Both the position numbers and the translations under genes were made by a program. Positions 12,067 to 63,761 of a DNA stretch of 64,000 nucleotides are shown here, piece after piece. Where the stretch lies: the sequence record OM386655.1; one strand, given 5' to 3'. Position 1 is the first letter of the stretch; each line of letters begins with the position of its first letter. This stretch comes from Escherichia phage vB_EcoM_ESCO10. The notes under the pieces are model-generated. The model was not told the DNA's origin. It saw only the letters and a program-made list of their open reading frames with translations, and searched no databases.

Positions 12067-13155
12067 ATGAAAGTAAAAGAACTCGACTTTGATGTAGCCT
12101 CCTTATTTAAAGGAGGTTCAAAAACCTCCGCAGGTCAATCTAAAGCTAAACCGGCCCAAACTACGGTAACAGCCCAGTATCCAGCAGAGAGGGCTTCCGG
12201 TAATGATACTTCTACAGATATGGTACTAAACGATTTATATAAAAATGGTTTACTTTTTACAGCATATAATTTTAGCTCTCGTGTATCGCCCGATTTGCGT
12301 AATGACCGTTCGAGCCAAATGACTAAAAAGTTTTCAAAAGCCGCTAATAAACTTACCGGTAATACTGGTGGGTTCAGTGCAGTTAAAAACCTGTTTAGTA
12401 GCAACTCTAAAGGAGTAAAATTTGATAGCCAGGCTTTAGCCAACATTTTACTCCCACGTTCCAAGTCTGATGTTGATTCAGTCACCCATAAATTTAATGA
12501 TGTAGGCGAATCATTAATTACTAAAGGCGGTGGTACTGCTACAGGTATTTTGAGTAACGTTGCTAGTACTGCGGTATTTGGTGCATTGGAATCTGTAACT
12601 AATGGGGTAATGGCTGATTCAGGAGAACAGATATATACCACCGCTCGTAGTATGTACGCAGGACCTGATAACCGTACTAAAGTATTTACTTGGGAAATGA
12701 CCCCTAGAAATGCTCAGGACCTTATCCAGATTATCAAAATATACGAAATCTTTAATTATTATTCTTATGGCGAAACAGGCAACTCTGCCTTCGCGGGTGA
12801 ATTAAAAGAGAAGATTGACACATGGTACAGGTCTACATTTAAAAAAGAAGCTATTGATAACTTTGATGGTAAGCTATTAGGAGAAGGTATTACAAGTTTC
12901 CTTTCCAATGTTATTGTAGTAAGTAACCCGACCATTTGGTATATTCGAAACTTTGGCGATACAAGTTCATATGACGGGCGCGAAGATATTTTTGGACCGT
13001 GTCAAATCCAGAGTATACGATTTGACAAAACTCCTGATGGGCATTTTAATGGTTTGGCTATTGCTCCTAACTTACCATCTACATTTAGTTTAGAAGTTAC
13101 TTTCCGTGAAATCATTACTTTGAACCGTGGCTCACTTTATACGGAAGGATTCTAA
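12067..13155 (+). CDS. 48: baseplate tail tube cap gp48
   Basis: synteny, size; ATG 12067 (track TTG 12061). Confidence 0.8.
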   Translation: MKVKELDFDVASLFKGGSKTSAGQSKAKPAQTTVTAQYPAERASGNDTSTDMVLNDLYKNGLLFTAYNFSSRVSPDLRNDRSSQMTKKFSKAANKLTGNTGGFSAVKNLFSSNSKGVKFDSQALANILLPRSKSDVDSVTHKFNDVGESLITKGGGTATGILSNVASTAVFGALESVTNGVMADSGEQIYTTARSMYAGPDNRTKVFTWEMTPRNAQDLIQIIKIYEIFNYYSYGETGNSAFAGELKEKIDTWYRSTFKKEAIDNFDGKLLGEGITSFLSNVIVVSNPTIWYIRNFGDTSSYDGREDIFGPCQIQSIRFDKTPDGHFNGLAIAPNLPSTFSLEVTFREIITLNRGSLYTEGF

Positions 13156-22053: not shown

Positions 22054-22248
22054 TTATCCTCGCTTTAAACATTTGATTACAGACAATTCTTGTCCCATGC
22101 GTACGTCTTCAGTTCCGTCAACCCACAGGACTGAATAGGCTTCTTTAATTACTTTACCGTTAATTTTAAAAGCAGGTAAAACCTTTGAAATCATTCCAGG
22201 AATACCTATGCCTTTTAACTGGACTGTTTGTGATAAAAATAGTTGCAT
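22054..22248 (-). CDS. hypothetical protein (64 aa)
   Basis: ORF track; tight packing. Confidence 0.4.
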   Translation of the reverse strand: MQLFLSQTVQLKGIGIPGMISKVLPAFKINGKVIKEAYSVLWVDGTEDVRMGQELSVIKCLKRG

Positions 22249-22535
22249 TAGAACCTCATCTGAAATCCGTGTGATTTAACATTACCACCATAGACATCAG
22301 AGGTATTGACTTCACGTGCAGCGCTAGGGTCAATGTTAATATCATGGTTGAGCTTAGTGATTGCTAGGGTATCACGACCATTGACGGTACGGAATTCTAC
22401 AGGGCATACCACATCAGCATAGGCCTTAATAGATTCACGAGTAGGCTGTTTGTCAGCAGGAACACCTTTACCGGCTTTAGAGAAAACAACTTCACAGAAA
22501 TTTTTACGAGTATCGAAATAAGTGGTCATAAACAT
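22248..22535 (-). CDS. hypothetical protein (95 aa)
   Basis: ORF track; GAGGA SD. Confidence 0.45.
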   Translation of the reverse strand: MFMTTYFDTRKNFCEVVFSKAGKGVPADKQPTRESIKAYADVVCPVEFRTVNGRDTLAITKLNHDINIDPSAAREVNTSDVYGGNVKSHGFQMRF

Positions 22536-22549
22536 AATATTTTCCTCAA

Positions 22550-22565
22550 GGAGGCCGAAGCCTCC
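22550..22565 (-). promoter_or_regulatory. intercistronic RNA hairpin GGAGGC-UUCG-GCCUCC just upstream of SD
   Basis: perfect 6-bp stem with UUCG loop on minus transcript; identical copy at 60477-60492. Confidence 0.5.
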
Positions 22566-22573
22566 ATTTAAGA

Positions 22574-22939
22574 TTAGATATCAAACTCGTTAAGAACTAC
22601 ATCAAAGATTGCTTCAAGATGTTCAGGTTTAGCTCGGTTACTCAGAATATGACGAATCCAAGTTTTAACTAAGAGTTTACGATTATCACCGTTCCAACAA
22701 GGATGAGTGCCTAAATCGCGTTCACGGAAATCATCATCTAGAGCGATTTTAAAGTTGGAACCTTCCTTAGTTATTGAAAGAGTGATACCGTTTTCAAATC
22801 GCATATAAACGTAGTTAGGAGTCATGCACTGCTCGATTTCACATACTGAACCGTTTTCATGTTTCCACAGGCAAATAACTTCAGAAGAACCAGCGATACC
22901 GTTAGAAACATATTTACGTTCGAAGTTGATGTAGTTCAT
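22574..22939 (-). CDS. hypothetical protein (121 aa)
   Basis: ORF track. Confidence 0.45.
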   Translation of the reverse strand: MNYINFERKYVSNGIAGSSEVICLWKHENGSVCEIEQCMTPNYVYMRFENGITLSITKEGSNFKIALDDDFRERDLGTHPCWNGDNRKLLVKTWIRHILSNRAKPEHLEAIFDVVLNEFDI

Positions 22940-23436: not shown

Positions 23437-23464
23437 AAACAAAAATGGGACTCCGAAGAGTCCC
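23437..23464 (-). terminator. intrinsic terminator
   Basis: GGGACUC-UUCG-GAGUCCC hairpin followed by UUUUUGUUU on minus strand. Confidence 0.6.
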
Positions 23465-23469
23465 ATAAC

Positions 23470-26907: not shown

Positions 26908-26935
26908 TTCGATTTCCTCATGTGTTGGTAGGACT

Positions 26936-26965
26936 ACTATACCACAGTCCTACCATGGTGTAAAC
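26936..26965 (-). promoter_or_regulatory. sigma70-like early promoter with extended -10
   Basis: minus GTTTAC, 18 nt, TGgTATAGT; 9-bp inverted repeat 26927-26935/26946-26954 flanks -10. Confidence 0.45.
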
Positions 26966-32326: not shown

Positions 32327-32340
32327 GGGGCCGAAGCCCC
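32327..32340 (-). promoter_or_regulatory. RNA hairpin GGGGC-UUCG-GCCCC between SD and denA start codon (split ribosome-binding site)
   Basis: AAGGA SD, 14-nt hairpin, UUAUUGCU, AUG; same hairpin sequence as upstream of gene 38. Confidence 0.5.
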
Positions 32341-35850: not shown

Positions 35851-35880
35851 AGGTTCTATATCTATAATAACATAGAACCT
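35851..35880. repeat. perfect 9-bp inverted repeat flanking -10 element upstream of nrdA
   Basis: AGGTTCTAT ... 12 nt ... ATAGAACCT. Confidence 0.7.
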
Positions 35881-38184: not shown

Positions 38185-38210
38185 TTTATTCTCCTCAAGT
38201 TGATAAGGCT

Positions 38211-38240
38211 ATAGTATCACTACCATAGCCTGTTGTAAAC
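38211..38240 (-). promoter_or_regulatory. sigma70-like early promoter
   Basis: minus GTTTAC, 18 nt, TACTAT; 7-bp inverted repeat 38206-38212/38225-38231. Confidence 0.45.
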
Positions 38241-39224: not shown

Positions 39225-39249
39225 AAAAAGGGAAGACCGAAGTCTTCCC
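39225..39249 (-). terminator. intrinsic terminator after gene 32
   Basis: GGGAAGAC-UUCG-GUCUUCCC 8-bp stem then UUUUUGGCAUUU on minus strand. Confidence 0.65.
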
Positions 39250-46419: not shown

Positions 46420-47547
46420 ATGGAAAGATTTATGGCTGAATTTGGACAAAACTATGTTCAAATTCCTGTATTATCTGAAAATAACGCCGTTCGATATAAA
46501 CTTAGTATAGCAGGGAGCTGTACTAAGTCTACCGTAAAGGCTTATGTTAAATTTCAAGATGAGGTCTTCGGACCTCAAAACTTTTTACCAGGGCTTAATC
46601 TTGTTGAAATAGACCCTGTAACTAACACAATAACGGCCTCTAAGAATTACCAGCTTACAAGTTCCCATGATACTATATCTCAAGCCTTTATAACATATGT
46701 GAACTCTATTCCGGCCAACAGAATAGTTTGCTTAATTTCCTCCGGAAGGCTATTTGCTTCACAGACATTAATAGATTGGTTTAAGGCTGCTGGAAGTACG
46801 GTATTTCCGGATAAATGGCTTATTGATAAAGTAGAACCAAGTTATTCGGCTTTTTATGTTTCGGGTCGAAATGCTATAGTAAAAGAGCATGTGCTTTATA
46901 ACGATGGCATTTTGGTTGAAGATGTATCAACCCCTTTAGAAATGGTTTATGACACTATTAATGATGTAGGAGCCACAGGATTCCCACTTCGTATTATAGA
47001 AGATGAAACCGAATACTTTAGTAGCGGAAGCCAAGAAATTAAACGTTTCCCTACTTCAGAGACCATAACTCCTATGGCAAATTATAATATGAAACCTGGT
47101 GATTGGTTTTATATTAAATTCCAAAGTAATTATGATGCTGCATTGAAGGCTGAAGGAACAACCCAAGTTTCAGTTAGGTTCTTTAATGGGCTTTCATTAA
47201 TCCAGTCCACTGATATGGATATTCCTGTGGGCGCCGGTTCTCCTCCAGCAGGAGCATGGATGAGTTTTGAGCGTTATATTCAAGCCCCAGCAAATTCTGA
47301 CGGATTCACAGTTTATGCTCGTAAAACGGTAAATGTGGGTATTGGCGGTCTTAGAAATATATCATTCGGTGAAATATCCTCGCAAGAACCTCAACCTAAA
47401 GATGCTGAAATCGGTGTGAATGGTATGCGTATGAACTTTGGTACAGAAACACTTAACTTGGCTCCTGATTTGATTTCTCAGTTGAATGATAAAGCTAGTG
47501 GTTATGCAGGCAAGGTATTTGCTGCAGAGTTTAAAGAAAAATATTAG
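46420..47547 (+). CDS. 35: long tail fiber hinge (knee) protein gp35
   Basis: matches T4 gp35 from MERFMAEFGQ; AGAGG SD. Confidence 0.85.
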   Translation: MERFMAEFGQNYVQIPVLSENNAVRYKLSIAGSCTKSTVKAYVKFQDEVFGPQNFLPGLNLVEIDPVTNTITASKNYQLTSSHDTISQAFITYVNSIPANRIVCLISSGRLFASQTLIDWFKAAGSTVFPDKWLIDKVEPSYSAFYVSGRNAIVKEHVLYNDGILVEDVSTPLEMVYDTINDVGATGFPLRIIEDETEYFSSGSQEIKRFPTSETITPMANYNMKPGDWFYIKFQSNYDAALKAEGTTQVSVRFFNGLSLIQSTDMDIPVGAGSPPAGAWMSFERYIQAPANSDGFTVYARKTVNVGIGGLRNISFGEISSQEPQPKDAEIGVNGMRMNFGTETLNLAPDLISQLNDKASGYAGKVFAAEFKEKY

Positions 47548-47567
47548 GAACCTTCGGGTTCCTTTTT
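47547..47567 (+). terminator. intrinsic terminator after gene 35
   Basis: GGAACC-UUCG-GGUUCC then UUUUU. Confidence 0.65.
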
Positions 47568-51821: not shown

Positions 51822-51826
51822 GGAGA

Positions 51827-51840
51827 GGGGCTTCGGCCCC
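51827..51840 (+). promoter_or_regulatory. RNA hairpin GGGGC-UUCG-GCCCC between SD and gene 38 start codon (split ribosome-binding site)
   Basis: AAGGAG at 51820-51825, hairpin, AUG at 51849 (23-nt spacing, ~9 nt when folded). Confidence 0.55.
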
Positions 51841-51848
51841 TTCTAAAT

Positions 51849-57473: not shown

Positions 57474-57554
57474 TCACAGGCGTCCGAAGACGCCGGTAAT
57501 TTTAAGATTATTACGATGCCATTGCATCACATGTTCGTTATAGAAATTACTCAT
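57474..57554 (-). CDS. stp: Stp peptide (26 aa)
   Basis: hand-translated [26 protein letters not shown], close to remembered T4 Stp; below track cutoff. Confidence 0.7.
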
Positions 57555-58169: not shown

Positions 58170-58214
58170 ATCAATTTCCTCAGTAAATGATTTATTATCC
58201 AGTCAACGAGAACC

Positions 58215-58243
58215 ATTATAACATGATTCTCGAGGTTGTAAAC
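58215..58243 (-). promoter_or_regulatory. sigma70-like early promoter for ndd (extended -10)
   Basis: minus GTTTAC, 17 nt, TGtTATAAT; 6-bp inverted repeat flanks -10. Confidence 0.55.
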
Positions 58244-60015: not shown

Positions 60016-60277
60016 AATCACCACCAATATACAATTCTTCGACGTGAACATTACCAAAATAGATACGAGAGTTTTCACTCAATTTACTGTGGTCTAATTT
60101 TTTAAGGTTTTCAACTGAATCGAAAATCACATCTGTTGCAAAAAGATGGCCTGTAGCTTTATCAGATGTGATTACATCTACGCAATAAACCTTATCGACC
60201 ACATGATTACCTTGGAGATAACTATCTTTGATATCTTCGTCGCCGACGTTCATGTAATTAATCATTTTACTCACCAA
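59948..60277 (-). CDS. hypothetical protein
   Basis: ORF track; overlaps denB-like 5' region. Confidence 0.4.
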   Translation of the reverse strand: MVSKMINYMNVGDEDIKDSYLQGNHVVDKVYCVDVITSDKATGHLFATDVIFDSVENLKKLDHSKLSENSRIYFGNVHVEELYIGGDYESVKSGTSSTVEDADIYPEDI

Positions 60278-60464
60278 AATAAGAAATACGAACCTCTAAA
60301 CAATGAGCGTATGCACCCATCGCATCCAGTTGTGCAATCAGTAACCCTTGTTGACGGATATCAAGAGTTTCAAAAACACCACCTTTAATAAACTCTTCAA
60401 GAGCATTAATTTTCAGGGCCAATTGGTCATATTCTTCGATTACACGTGCTTGAAAACCTAACAT
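60267..60464 (-). CDS. hypothetical protein (65 aa)
   Basis: ORF track; GAGGA SD. Confidence 0.45.
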   Translation of the reverse strand: MLGFQARVIEEYDQLALKINALEEFIKGGVFETLDIRQQGLLIAQLDAMGAYAHCLEVRISYFGE

Positions 60465-60476
60465 AATTCCTCATTA

Positions 60477-60492
60477 GGAGGCCGAAGCCTCC
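60477..60492 (-). promoter_or_regulatory. intercistronic RNA hairpin GGAGGC-UUCG-GCCUCC just upstream of SD
   Basis: identical to element at 22550-22565. Confidence 0.5.
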
Positions 60493-60502
60493 ATTTATTG
60501 AT

Positions 60503-61537
60503 TTAGTATTTGTATTCGTTTGCGAACTGTTCAGTGACGTCTTCCAGAACTTCATAATAACATACACGCATTTTAGCATCACCGTAATCAACTGGGATAC
60601 TAACGACATCACGTGGGTTAACTTTACACGAAACTACTTTACAGCTTGAGCTACCAAAGTGGCCGATATAACTACGAGAGCAAACGTGTAGACCACTTGA
60701 ACAAGTTACTTCGTCGTCATCATTAACACGCGAACGAGGCATTTTAACTGGCTTACCTGGTGAGTTATCAAACGTACCAGTGCGACAGTCGGTGTAATCA
60801 GCGTTAACAACTTTCCATGTGATAAATTGGCCGTCTTCAGTGATTTTGATATCGTTCGCTACAAGGAAGTCGAACAGACGTTGCACAGCTTTTTCACTCG
60901 GGTTTTCTAACAGGTTCTCAAGGAACGGCAGGTAGAATTCGAAGTCTTCGCCGTTTTCCATTGAAGCAATAATACGGTCAATAAGACCGGAACGGAGTTC
61001 GATACCTTGATAGACTAGGCGACCGCCTTCAATACGAACGTTACCTTTAACGAAAGCCTTAACAGCTTCTTTAATAGAAATCAGTTTAATCGCATCATCG
61101 AAACGGGATTCTTTAAGAGCCTGTACAATGGTATCAAAATGTTTGTTCTTATTAGTGGTATTCCATACTGTACGTCCTTCAGTGATGGATACGAATTTAG
61201 TGCTTGCATTCCAAATAATTTCAGGACGCGAGCCACCAATGGTAACTTCAACCGGAACTACACGAGGCTCATTAGGAACTGTTACGGTAATATTTCCGGT
61301 AATAACCACTTTTGATGGTTCATTTAAAGGTACAGTAGGCGCTTTTTTAAGAGACTCTGCCATAGAATTAGCTACTTTAGAAAGATTAAATTCTTTATCG
61401 TTTTTAATGACCCTACGAATGGTATCAACCGAAACACTATACCACTCAGCCAGTTCTTGTTGAGTATAATTACCTGAAGCATACAGAGAAACAATTTGTT
61501 TTTGTTCGTATTCAGAGACACATTTAATATTATACAT
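60503..61537 (-). CDS. rIIB: rIIB membrane-associated protein
   Basis: strong match to T4 rIIB (MYNIKC...SGNYTQQELA...VSVDTIRRV...). Confidence 0.9.
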   Translation of the reverse strand: MYNIKCVSEYEQKQIVSLYASGNYTQQELAEWYSVSVDTIRRVIKNDKEFNLSKVANSMAESLKKAPTVPLNEPSKVVITGNITVTVPNEPRVVPVEVTIGGSRPEIIWNASTKFVSITEGRTVWNTTNKNKHFDTIVQALKESRFDDAIKLISIKEAVKAFVKGNVRIEGGRLVYQGIELRSGLIDRIIASMENGEDFEFYLPFLENLLENPSEKAVQRLFDFLVANDIKITEDGQFITWKVVNADYTDCRTGTFDNSPGKPVKMPRSRVNDDDEVTCSSGLHVCSRSYIGHFGSSSCKVVSCKVNPRDVVSIPVDYGDAKMRVCYYEVLEDVTEQFANEYKY

Positions 61538-61550
61538 AATATTTCCTAAG

Positions 61551-63761
61551 TTAAGCCGCTTCCACGGCTTTCATGAATTTAACGATTTGAGCTACAGAAG
61601 CCTCGGTAATGGATGTTCCACGACGATACATATAGTCTGAAACTAAATGGTAATCAGATTCAAACTGTACAGTCATTTTATCATTGTTGTTTGAAGCATT
61701 ATTGGTTAACGTATTGAACGTATTGTTACAGATTCTTTTGATAATAGAAAGTTTGTCATCAGTGATATACCCATGGAAATTCATATAACGGAATATATCA
61801 TAGAAATTACTCAGACGAGTATACGCTTCAGACACCGGCTTATCGCTGAAATACTTAGTCATAAACCCAAGCTCAGGGAACTTAGCAATTATTTCAAGAT
61901 AATACCGGGCGCGGGTATTGCTACCGATATAATCATCAATATCTACAGCATCTAATGCTTCAGCATAAGCTTCTAATGTGGCTTCCATTAGGCATTCGCA
62001 CTGGCCTAACTTTTTAATCTTTTTGGCAATCTGAGGACGAATGATATGGAATTCGGTAATACCTAACAAATTAGCCATACGAGTCATTGTAGTGGTGTTG
62101 ATATCAAAGTTACCATAAGCTTCATCCATTCCTAGGATATCAGAACGTCTACCGAACAACACATAACCTGAAATCTCTTCAGCTTCAGCCGCAGTCAAAT
62201 ACATTGTTTCTTGTTGCCAGCGACCGTCTTTAATGAACCAACGATATGCACTTGGTGTTTTAGGACGAGGTTCAGATGAACGAACTGTAACCGGAATCCA
62301 CGGCTTAACAATCTTATTCAGTTCCGAGACTTTATAAAAATGAATTGTGTCACCCTTAAAAAGAGCTTTAACTTTTTCAAGTTGCTGCATTTGCAGCATT
62401 GAATTCGGGTCAACAAAAATAAGGTCCGTTCCGTATTTAGGAATATTGTGCTCTTTAACAATTTTCTTGGCTTTGACAGAATTATCCATTGCTAGCGCCC
62501 ATAGACCTCGAACCAGAGGCACACGTCCCTTTTCGTCATCATAAACAACATGGATTTCTTTATTATTAATGCCTAATAAGCCGCTAAGTCCTGCCACGGA
62601 AGAAGTATTACCACTCGACTTAATTCGTTTCAAACGAGGGTCCGAAATAACTTCGTAAACTACACCTAAATTAACAAGGTCGTTTTGAAGCGTATAACGT
62701 TGGTACAATTTCTCGTATGTTAATTTTTCAGTTGTGAACTGTTTAGTAACACCTCTTTTAGAAAGGTATTCACGAGCACTATAACCGAGGTTAGCAAGGT
62801 CGCGATAAACATGACGCGGATTATCAGATTCCACCCATTCTTTTGTATCATTTTTAAAGACTACTGCATCTAGGGCTTCAATGCGGGTTGCAATATTTTC
62901 CATAGTACGCTTATCAAGCGACAACGCTTCACGAGATGGAGCAATATCTAATGAACCCATAGGGAACTTAATATAAACTACATCATGACGGGTACGCATC
63001 CATGTGCCTTTAATATAGGCAGAATCTAATGGATAAACAATACCGCCATAAACAGCATAAAGTCCTGAACGTTCAAAATCACCGTAGCCTGTATCAGTTA
63101 CTGAATGGTAGTCTTCGAACTCAGGGAAATAATTAACTTCGACACCATCGACATCACCTAGTCCAATGAAAGGACGCATGATATAACGAATTTCAGTTTC
63201 AAACTTACGGAAATCTTCTTCGTCAACAGGAACAGTGATTTCAATACCTGTTTTATCGCCAGGTTGCATCGGTTCGACAAAAGTAGGTTTAATCTGTGGG
63301 CCATCACCATCCATATAAGCTACATAACCACGAACTTCACCATTATGCCATGATGTAATGTTAAACGTTTCTGTATAACTAAATGGAGATTTCGAACCAA
63401 GTCCAAAGCCGCCAATAAAATCGTTAGAAGCCGTTTTGGATGAAGCGAAATAAGAGTTATACAAACCTGTTTCATTTTCATCACCACGAATCTGGAAATC
63501 ACTCATGCCTGGGCCGAAGTCTCGACATACGAAACGTGGGTCAAGCTTACCAGGAACCTGTACTTTCCAACGTTCTTTATTACCATTCAGAATATGGGCA
63601 TCAATCATGTTGGTGATTAGTTCACGAACTACAGCACGTACCTTATTACTATAAAGGTCTGATGACAAAATTTTAAAGACCTTAGGAGAAGCCTGGATAG
63701 TAAAGCCTGTAGACTTAGAGCCGTTACCGATGATTTGTTCTTTTTCAGTTTCAATAATCAT
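61551..63761 (-). CDS. rIIA: rIIA protein (GHKL-type ATPase fold)
   Basis: 736 aa, synteny adjacent to rIIB. Confidence 0.9.
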   Translation of the reverse strand: MIIETEKEQIIGNGSKSTGFTIQASPKVFKILSSDLYSNKVRAVVRELITNMIDAHILNGNKERWKVQVPGKLDPRFVCRDFGPGMSDFQIRGDENETGLYNSYFASSKTASNDFIGGFGLGSKSPFSYTETFNITSWHNGEVRGYVAYMDGDGPQIKPTFVEPMQPGDKTGIEITVPVDEEDFRKFETEIRYIMRPFIGLGDVDGVEVNYFPEFEDYHSVTDTGYGDFERSGLYAVYGGIVYPLDSAYIKGTWMRTRHDVVYIKFPMGSLDIAPSREALSLDKRTMENIATRIEALDAVVFKNDTKEWVESDNPRHVYRDLANLGYSAREYLSKRGVTKQFTTEKLTYEKLYQRYTLQNDLVNLGVVYEVISDPRLKRIKSSGNTSSVAGLSGLLGINNKEIHVVYDDEKGRVPLVRGLWALAMDNSVKAKKIVKEHNIPKYGTDLIFVDPNSMLQMQQLEKVKALFKGDTIHFYKVSELNKIVKPWIPVTVRSSEPRPKTPSAYRWFIKDGRWQQETMYLTAAEAEEISGYVLFGRRSDILGMDEAYGNFDINTTTMTRMANLLGITEFHIIRPQIAKKIKKLGQCECLMEATLEAYAEALDAVDIDDYIGSNTRARYYLEIIAKFPELGFMTKYFSDKPVSEAYTRLSNFYDIFRYMNFHGYITDDKLSIIKRICNNTFNTLTNNASNNNDKMTVQFESDYHLVSDYMYRRGTSITEASVAQIVKFMKAVEAA

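Follow-up and report, generated by a model that had tools for sequence, protein, structure and literature searches.

The element GGAGGC-UUCG-GCCUCC, which occurs twice in the 64,000-nucleotide stretch of Escherichia phage vB_EcoM_ESCO10 DNA analyzed here (the window; OM386655.1), is in both places an example of the C(UUCG)G intercistronic hairpin, an extra-stable RNA structure long known from T4-like phages. An exact search of the window for GGAGGCTTCGGCCTCC returns exactly two copies, at 22550-22565(-) and 60477-60492(-), both on the sense strand, which confirms at both coordinates the 16-nt repeat that a sequence-only reading of this DNA had claimed for the minus-strand transcript. The window holds no further match at up to three mismatches (0.06 expected; two copies were reached by 0 of 100 shuffles), and no extra copy was found in JS98 1-109 kb; between them, this segment and the window cover a whole JS98-type genome. 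The copies lie between genes 30.7 and 30.6 (site 1) and between rIIB and denB.1 (site 2), and the two sites are laid out as follows.

22574..22576, minus strand: TAA stop of gene 30.7, separated from hairpin 1 by 8 nt (ORF 22574..22939(-), JS98 annotation)
22566..22573, minus strand: A/U-rich single-stranded spacer UCUUAAAU from the stop codon to hairpin 1 (sequence)
22550..22565, minus strand: hairpin copy 1, GGAGGC-UUCG-GCCUCC, in the 30.7/30.6 spacer (exact match, energy, orthologous hairpins)
22533..22547, minus strand: start of gene 30.6, with GAGGA SD 22547-22543, 7-nt spacer and ATG 22535-22533 (ORF 22248..22535(-))
60503..60505, minus strand: TAA stop of rIIB, separated from hairpin 2 by 10 nt (ORF 60503..61537(-), JS98 annotation)
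60477..60492, minus strand: hairpin copy 2, GGAGGC-UUCG-GCCUCC, in the rIIB/denB.1 spacer (exact match, orthologous UUCG hairpin in seven genera)
60462..60472, minus strand: start of denB.1, with GAGGA SD 60472-60468 and ATG 60464-60462 (ORF 60267..60464(-))

Read along the minus strand, site 1 runs TAA, 8 nt, hairpin, TT, GAGGA, 7 nt and ATG(22535), and site 2 runs TAA(60505-60503), 10 nt, hairpin, TAAT, GAGGA, 3 nt and ATG(60464). Both copies show the placement that had been described for the element, behind a stop codon and with a GAGGA SD 2-4 nt further on; 8-10 nt separate them from the stop. The flanking genes 30.7, 30.6, rIIB and denB.1, named by JS98 annotation, are all on the minus strand, and the spacer from stop to next start is 38 nt at both sites, an intercistronic location in each case. 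The window is from a JS98-like phage of the T4 type (Dhakavirus, Straboviridae): the two regions share 90-96% nucleotide identity with JS98-group coliphages, gp30.6 has 98.9% identity with its counterpart in phage AV114, and JS98 carries the identical hairpin at both junctions. A mini-ORF at site 2, AUG-GAG-GCU-UCG-GCC-UCC-UAA, was rejected as not conserved, because its AUG reads ACG in JS98 and other relatives. In the antisense (+) reading, ATTTA(T/A) follows both hairpins (22550-22565 and 60477-60492), and site 2 was scored as terminator-like on the + strand by the terminator scan.

Both copies read GGAGG-CUUCGG-CCUCC, with six Watson-Crick pairs, and fit the form (X)2-8 CUUCGG (Y)2-8, in which the X and Y arms are complementary. 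Hairpins of the C(UUCG)G class have unusual thermodynamic stability and block reverse transcriptase; the stability here is a predicted one, the nearest-neighbor energy of the isolated hairpin being -10.8 kcal/mol (z -3.4). The minimum-free-energy fold of site 1 adds a weak outer helix of UCUUAA with UUGAGG, which has no equivalent at site 2. Hairpins of the form (X)2-8CUUCGG(Y)2-8 are found in many phages, mostly in intergenic positions, and T4 is especially rich in them (PMC8948821, citing Tuerk 1988; also PMC4371310).

Intercistronic enrichment genome-wide was the check attached to the sequence-only reading, and it is found: by ORF-based gene calls, 16 of 48 sense-strand CTTCGG motifs are intergenic, where intergenic DNA is 6.3% of the sequence (5.3-fold enriched, p=2e-8), and 1 of 49 antisense motifs is, so that intergenic CTTCGG stands at 16:1 sense to antisense (p=3e-4). 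The window contains 10 C(UUCG)G hairpins whose stems reach 5 bp or more, and in every one of them UUCG is on the locally transcribed strand; JS98 1-100 kb contributes 10 more strong UUCG hairpins, again all sense-oriented, or 20/20 in total. Loop orientation would not matter to a DNA palindrome, so selection acts on the RNA, the structure being favored in intergenic DNA and in the sense orientation. The kinship with the T4 intercistronic CUUCGG hairpins that had been proposed is borne out as class membership by form, location and enrichment.

The 16-mer itself is not specific to this family, because it recurs in at least 118 unrelated phage contexts. An exact scan of IMG/VR gave at least 125 matches in at least 118 distinct contexts, in phages of 30-69% G+C; among the contexts listed, 49% continue into a T-run, the architecture of a terminator, and 25% have no T-run and an SD and start codon within 45 nt downstream. 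Other 6-bp UUCG hairpins number 20 in ~1 Mb of sequence. The 16-mer is a convergent, convenient core for a stable hairpin, and with about 20 G-rich C(UUCG)G hairpins in the composite genome, the finding of two identical stems becomes far less surprising.

Hairpins at the 30.7/30.6 junction, or upstream of 30.6, take these forms in relatives.

JS98-clade genomes: GGAGGC-UUCG-GCCUCC
Gaprivervirus-type genomes: GGGGC-GAAA-GCCCC
T4-type genomes (Tequatrovirus): AGGGGC-UUCG/UUUG/UUCA-GCCCCU
Pantoea phage Phynn, upstream of 30.6: AGGGGC-GAAA-GCCCCU
Jiaodavirus and Biquartavirus: none; the genes abut, with 12-nt and 5-nt spacers

At the rIIB/denB.1 junction, where a UUCG hairpin is found in seven genera, the 5' arm varies likewise.

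Dhakavirus: GGAGGC
Gaprivervirus and Kanagawavirus: GGGGC
Marfavirus: GGGGAC
Winklervirus and Kagamiyamavirus: AAGGAGAC
Tequatrovirus: AAGGGC

In hairpin-centered alignments, 93.9% of cells are paired at rIIB/denB.1, with changes on both sides in 4/6 pairs, and 95.8% are paired at 30.7/30.6, with 2/6 pairs compensatory and loops of UUCG or GAAA (also UUUG/UUCA in the T4-type genomes); these covariation samples are small and their independent events few, and the direction is clear. Since the orthologues swap stems (GGGGC, GGGGAC, AAGGGC) with compensatory changes, what is conserved at both junctions, as judged from these alignments, is a stable tetraloop hairpin structure and not the GGAGG/CCUCC sequence. 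The two copies are positional orthologues of the hairpins that T4 and other Tevenvirinae carry at these junctions, and GGAGGC/GCCUCC is a lineage-specific stem variant whose SD-like composition looks incidental. The 30.7/30.6 hairpin is dispensable in Jiaodavirus and Biquartavirus, as it is absent there, and the spacing from stop to hairpin is not conserved, as in Tequatrovirus the stop codon falls inside the stem. With its position kept and its stem changes compensatory across at least seven genera, the rIIB/denB.1 hairpin is a clean natural test case for the effect of non-terminator pre-SD UUCG hairpins on mRNA decay and translation.

On the whole we lean toward the explanation that these are T4-type intercistronic C(UUCG)G hairpins whose RNA structure is selected and which act post-transcriptionally, as message punctuation or a decay barrier. 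From their anatomy and by analogy with known stabilizing stem-loops, their most likely role in the polycistronic early transcripts would be as a barrier to mRNA decay or an insulator. A part in mRNA processing or stability, or in tuning how ribosomes load, as the sequence-only reading put forward, is plausible. A small, autonomous and unusually stable stem-loop would form in the early mRNA between the stop codon (of 30.7 or rIIB) and the next ribosome binding site (of 30.6 or denB.1), and because it lacks a U-tract it would not efficiently terminate transcription. It could then block 3'->5' exonucleases that enter after downstream endonucleolytic cuts, protecting the upstream cistron. Once the A/U-rich spacer was cut, the downstream cistron would carry a stem-loop near its new 5' end, which might hinder 5'-end-dependent attack by RNase E/G. 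The G/C-rich segment, being locked into itself, would also be kept from pairing with the adjacent SD. The main agents of T4 mRNA decay are RNase E and 3' exonucleases (PMC3014915), and the stability of segments within operons is set by 3' stem-loops (PMC8219983). Shielding of mRNA from RNase E by 5'-terminal stem-loops is documented in references given in PMC3997798, and according to PMC8948821, which cites Gorski 1985 and Loayza 1991, the T4 gene 32 mRNA is stabilized by a 5' CUUCGG hairpin. Our literature search found no T4 RNA-end maps specific to the 30.7/30.6 or rIIB/denB.1 junctions.

Three readable architectures can be told apart among the UUCG hairpins of these genomes (terminator, pre-SD and split-SD), a division that could aid annotation. 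The window contains the following examples besides the two sites.

23445..23466, minus strand: terminator-type, 9-bp stem, UUCG loop, then UUUUGUUUCU
39230..39249, minus strand: terminator-type, GGGAAGAC-UUCG-GUCUUCCC, then UUUUUGG
47546..47563, plus strand (late, sense strand): terminator-type, AGGAACC-UUCG-GGUUCCU, then UUUUCG
57479..57494, minus strand: pre-SD, GGCGUC-UUCG-GACGCC, 16 nt past TAA and 3 nt before GAGGA and ATG
61553..61570, minus strand: pre-SD with GNRA loop, AAGCCGU-GGAA-GCGGCUU, between the rIIA stop and the rIIB SD
51825-51842, plus strand: split-SD, AAGGAG, hairpin GAGGGGC-UUCG-GCCCCUU, 7 nt and ATG, after a long tail-fiber gene (gene 38 by position)
32327-32340, minus strand: GGGGC-UUCG-GCCCC between AAGGA (overlapping the nrdB stop) and the next ATG (denA by position)

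The pre-SD group, defined by the lack of a U-tract and an SD 0-5 nt downstream, comprises the two reported sites, 57479-57494, 61553-61570 and JS98 67193 and 81408. The 10-mer TAATCTTAAA, made up of the TAA stop and part of UCUUAAAU, has exactly two copies in the window, 22567-22576(-) and 57501-57510(-), both located in A/U-rich sequence that separates a stop codon from a pre-SD UUCG hairpin; its recurrence may be chance or may mark a shared processing context. At 51825-51842 the split Shine-Dalgarno structure known from T4 gene 38 is conserved, here with UUCG as its loop. The hairpin at 32327-32340, with no SD between it and the downstream ATG, resembles the split-RBS arrangement of T4 genes 38 and 25, the gene being probably denA; we know of no published report of a split RBS at an nrdB/denA-type junction. 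Pairing of the GGAGG/CCUCC type is also seen inside a late-gene coding region at 12096-12129(+), in the two overlapping hairpins AGCCUCCU-UAUUUAA-AGGAGGUU and GGAGGU-UCAAAA-ACCUCC, which are mutually exclusive because the AGGAGGU segment is common to both.

An intrinsic terminator at the two sites was rejected, as no U-tract is present 3' of either stem (the tails are UUGAGGAA and UAAUGAGG). A weaker version, in which the hairpins act as leaky intrinsic terminators, as attenuators or as pause sites for RNA polymerase and so reduce, or set the timing of, read-through into 30.6 (from 30.7) and into denB.1 (from rIIB), is unlikely but retains some weight, because the orthologues in Winkler-, Kagamiyama- and Marfavirus (at rIIB/denB.1) and in Phynn (upstream of 30.6) carry U-rich tails, which hint at a transcriptional (attenuator) ancestry. 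The T-run that follows about half of the listed unrelated phage contexts of the 16-mer (at least 118) favors it as well, as do the sibling UUCG hairpins in the window that are clear terminators and the strong termination by the RB49 PeSL stem-loops (PMC2839356). However, the stem is only 6 bp, the sense-strand terminator scan called neither 22550-22565 nor 60477-60492, and efficient termination would silence the downstream genes, which lack a promoter within the 38-nt spacers; a promoter scan with a sigma70-like -35/-10 criterion found none in or beside either spacer.

The within-clade match of the stems is the only hint that goes beyond the textbook picture. Dhakavirus has GGAGGC at both 30.7/30.6 and rIIB/denB.1, ~38 kb apart, Gaprivervirus has GGGGC at both, and in Tequatrovirus the two are nearly alike (AGGGGC at 30.7/30.6 and AAGGGC at rIIB/denB.1). 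This may be a coincidence, as only three clades are compared and G-rich stems come in few kinds. We give little credence to the two hairpins being non-independent, whether through short-patch ectopic gene conversion or template switching or through a clade-specific trans-factor that reads the stem, such as the ribosomal anti-SD or a phage protein, though such a factor, if real, would give the SD/anti-SD composition a function.

A related alternative, that the element is a DNA-level palindrome (a recombination hotspot, a PeSL-like module boundary or a protein-binding site) whose copies ectopic gene conversion keeps identical, is improbable. It would account for the same or nearly the same stem at both junctions within each clade, short homology suffices for T4 recombination, and PeSL loops are crossover points (PMC2839356). 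In the T4-like phage L126 (IMGVR_UViG_2974742932_000001), synteny changes just upstream of the 30.6 hairpin, since the segment 5' of it is not 30.7 but another sequence, which ends in an early-promoter-like GTTTACA...TATTAT. Against this, the 16:1 sense bias of the UUCG loop is unexpected for a DNA palindrome, the promoter component is absent, and with few kinds of G-rich stem coincidence is plausible. The mosaic breakpoint between the window and phage VR5 maps to ~22475, at +61 of gene 30.6, with 99.3% identity upstream and 77% downstream; the 99.3% stretch takes in 30.7, the hairpin and the first 60 nt of 30.6, and hairpin 1 as a recombination boundary with VR5 was therefore rejected.

Slightly less probable still is an SD/anti-SD mimic, in which the GGAGG or CCUCC arm contacts ribosomes or the GAGGA SD and gates loading or couples termination to reinitiation. 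The pairing of SD-like GGAGG with anti-SD-like CCUCC that the sequence-only reading pointed out is real, and the AAGGAGAC/GUCUCCUU stems of the Winkler- and Kagamiyamavirus orthologues are again SD-like; the emphasis placed on it is unsupported, as orthologues use GGGGC/GCCCC, GGGGAC/GUCCCC and AAGGGC/GCCCUU, and GAAA loops at site 1, so that GGAGG/CCUCC is missing from the stems of Gapriver-, Kanagawa-, Marfa- and Tequatrovirus. The GGAGG, moreover, lies 25-30 nt from the AUG, locked in a stem of -10.8 kcal/mol, and the hairpin begins 9-11 nt past the stop, a distance at which, by standard ribosome footprint geometry, a terminating ribosome need not melt it; as the Tequatrovirus stop falls within the stem, even this spacing is not kept. 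When RBS accessibility was modeled for the wild type and for scrambled or deleted hairpins, site 2 gained from the hairpin, scrambling there lowering the predicted SD accessibility because the freed CCUC pairs with GAGG, but site 1 showed no such benefit, and the SD opening energies were 3-5 kcal/mol with or without the hairpin. In the inhibitory structures of T4 translation initiation regions (e, soc, 49, I-TevI), the SD and/or AUG is sequestered in a helix. Chance duplication without function, which the generic 16-mer and the missing 30.7/30.6 hairpin of some genera might suggest, is very improbable given the position kept across genera with compensatory changes and the intergenic sense-strand enrichment.

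Several other identities were considered for the two sites. A PeSL cassette was rejected, as there is no promoter in the 38-nt spacers (PMC2839356). A split-RBS enhancer hairpin was rejected on geometry, since the GAGGA follows the hairpin and is separated from the AUG by 3-7 nt. A RegB cleavage site was rejected as well: the RegB target is an unpaired GGAG with an A-rich tract (GG*AGRAYARAA), and secondary structure protects against RegB (PMC3014915), while here the GGAG is paired in the stem and is followed by GCUUCGG with no A-rich 3' tract. Rfam gave no match at gathering score in the whole window, and near both sites only chance-level matches.

Compared with known systems, the hairpins resemble phage intrinsic (Rho-independent) terminators in their G/C-rich stem and UUCG loop, and the same 16-mer is a terminator core in many unrelated phages, but the two reported sites are without a U-tract. 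With the promoter-early stem-loops (PeSL; Arbiol et al. 2010, PMC2839356) they share an early-region, intergenic stem-loop of a G-run and a C-run with an SD and start codon after it, and possibly a role as recombination linkers, but their 38-nt spacers have no sigma70-type promoter. Elsewhere on the minus strand of the window, four inverted repeats of 10-12 bp (26926-26955, 35851-35880, 38206-38231 and 58207-58232) have as loops the 6-nt -10-like hexamers GGTATA, ATTATA, AGTGAT and GTTATA, each preceded by GTTTACA and three followed by GAGGA and ATG; these four fit PeSL cassettes of the subclass with the stem-loop over the -10 box (Arbiol 2010, PMC2839356). The split-RBS hairpins of T4 genes 38 and 25 (PMC3014915) are likewise small stable hairpins in the translation initiation region of a T4-type phage, but they lie between SD and AUG and shorten the spacing, whereas the reported hairpins are upstream of a normally spaced SD. 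The 5' stabilizing stem-loops of ompA, papA and the T4 gene 32 leader and the 3' stabilizers REP and SRPS, as described in PMC3997798, PMC8219983 and PMC8948821, are also cistron-boundary hairpins with the function proposed here, the gene 32 leader being the phage precedent for a stabilizing hairpin (PMC8948821). The T4 intercistronic C(UUCG)G hairpins (Tuerk et al. 1988, PNAS 85:1364, as relayed in PMC8948821 and PMC4371310) are like ours in form, intergenic position and mRNA strand. By itself our finding is of little weight: intercistronic CUUCGG hairpins, described in T4 as early as 1988, are seen again here in a JS98-like phage. Both junctions carry a hairpin in T4 too, AGGGGC-UUCA-GCCCCU ahead of 30.6 and AAGGGC-UUCG-GCCCUU behind rIIB, and the only difference from the T4 C(UUCG)G hairpins is the stem, GGAGGC/GCCUCC, which is Dhakavirus-specific and identical at the two loci here.
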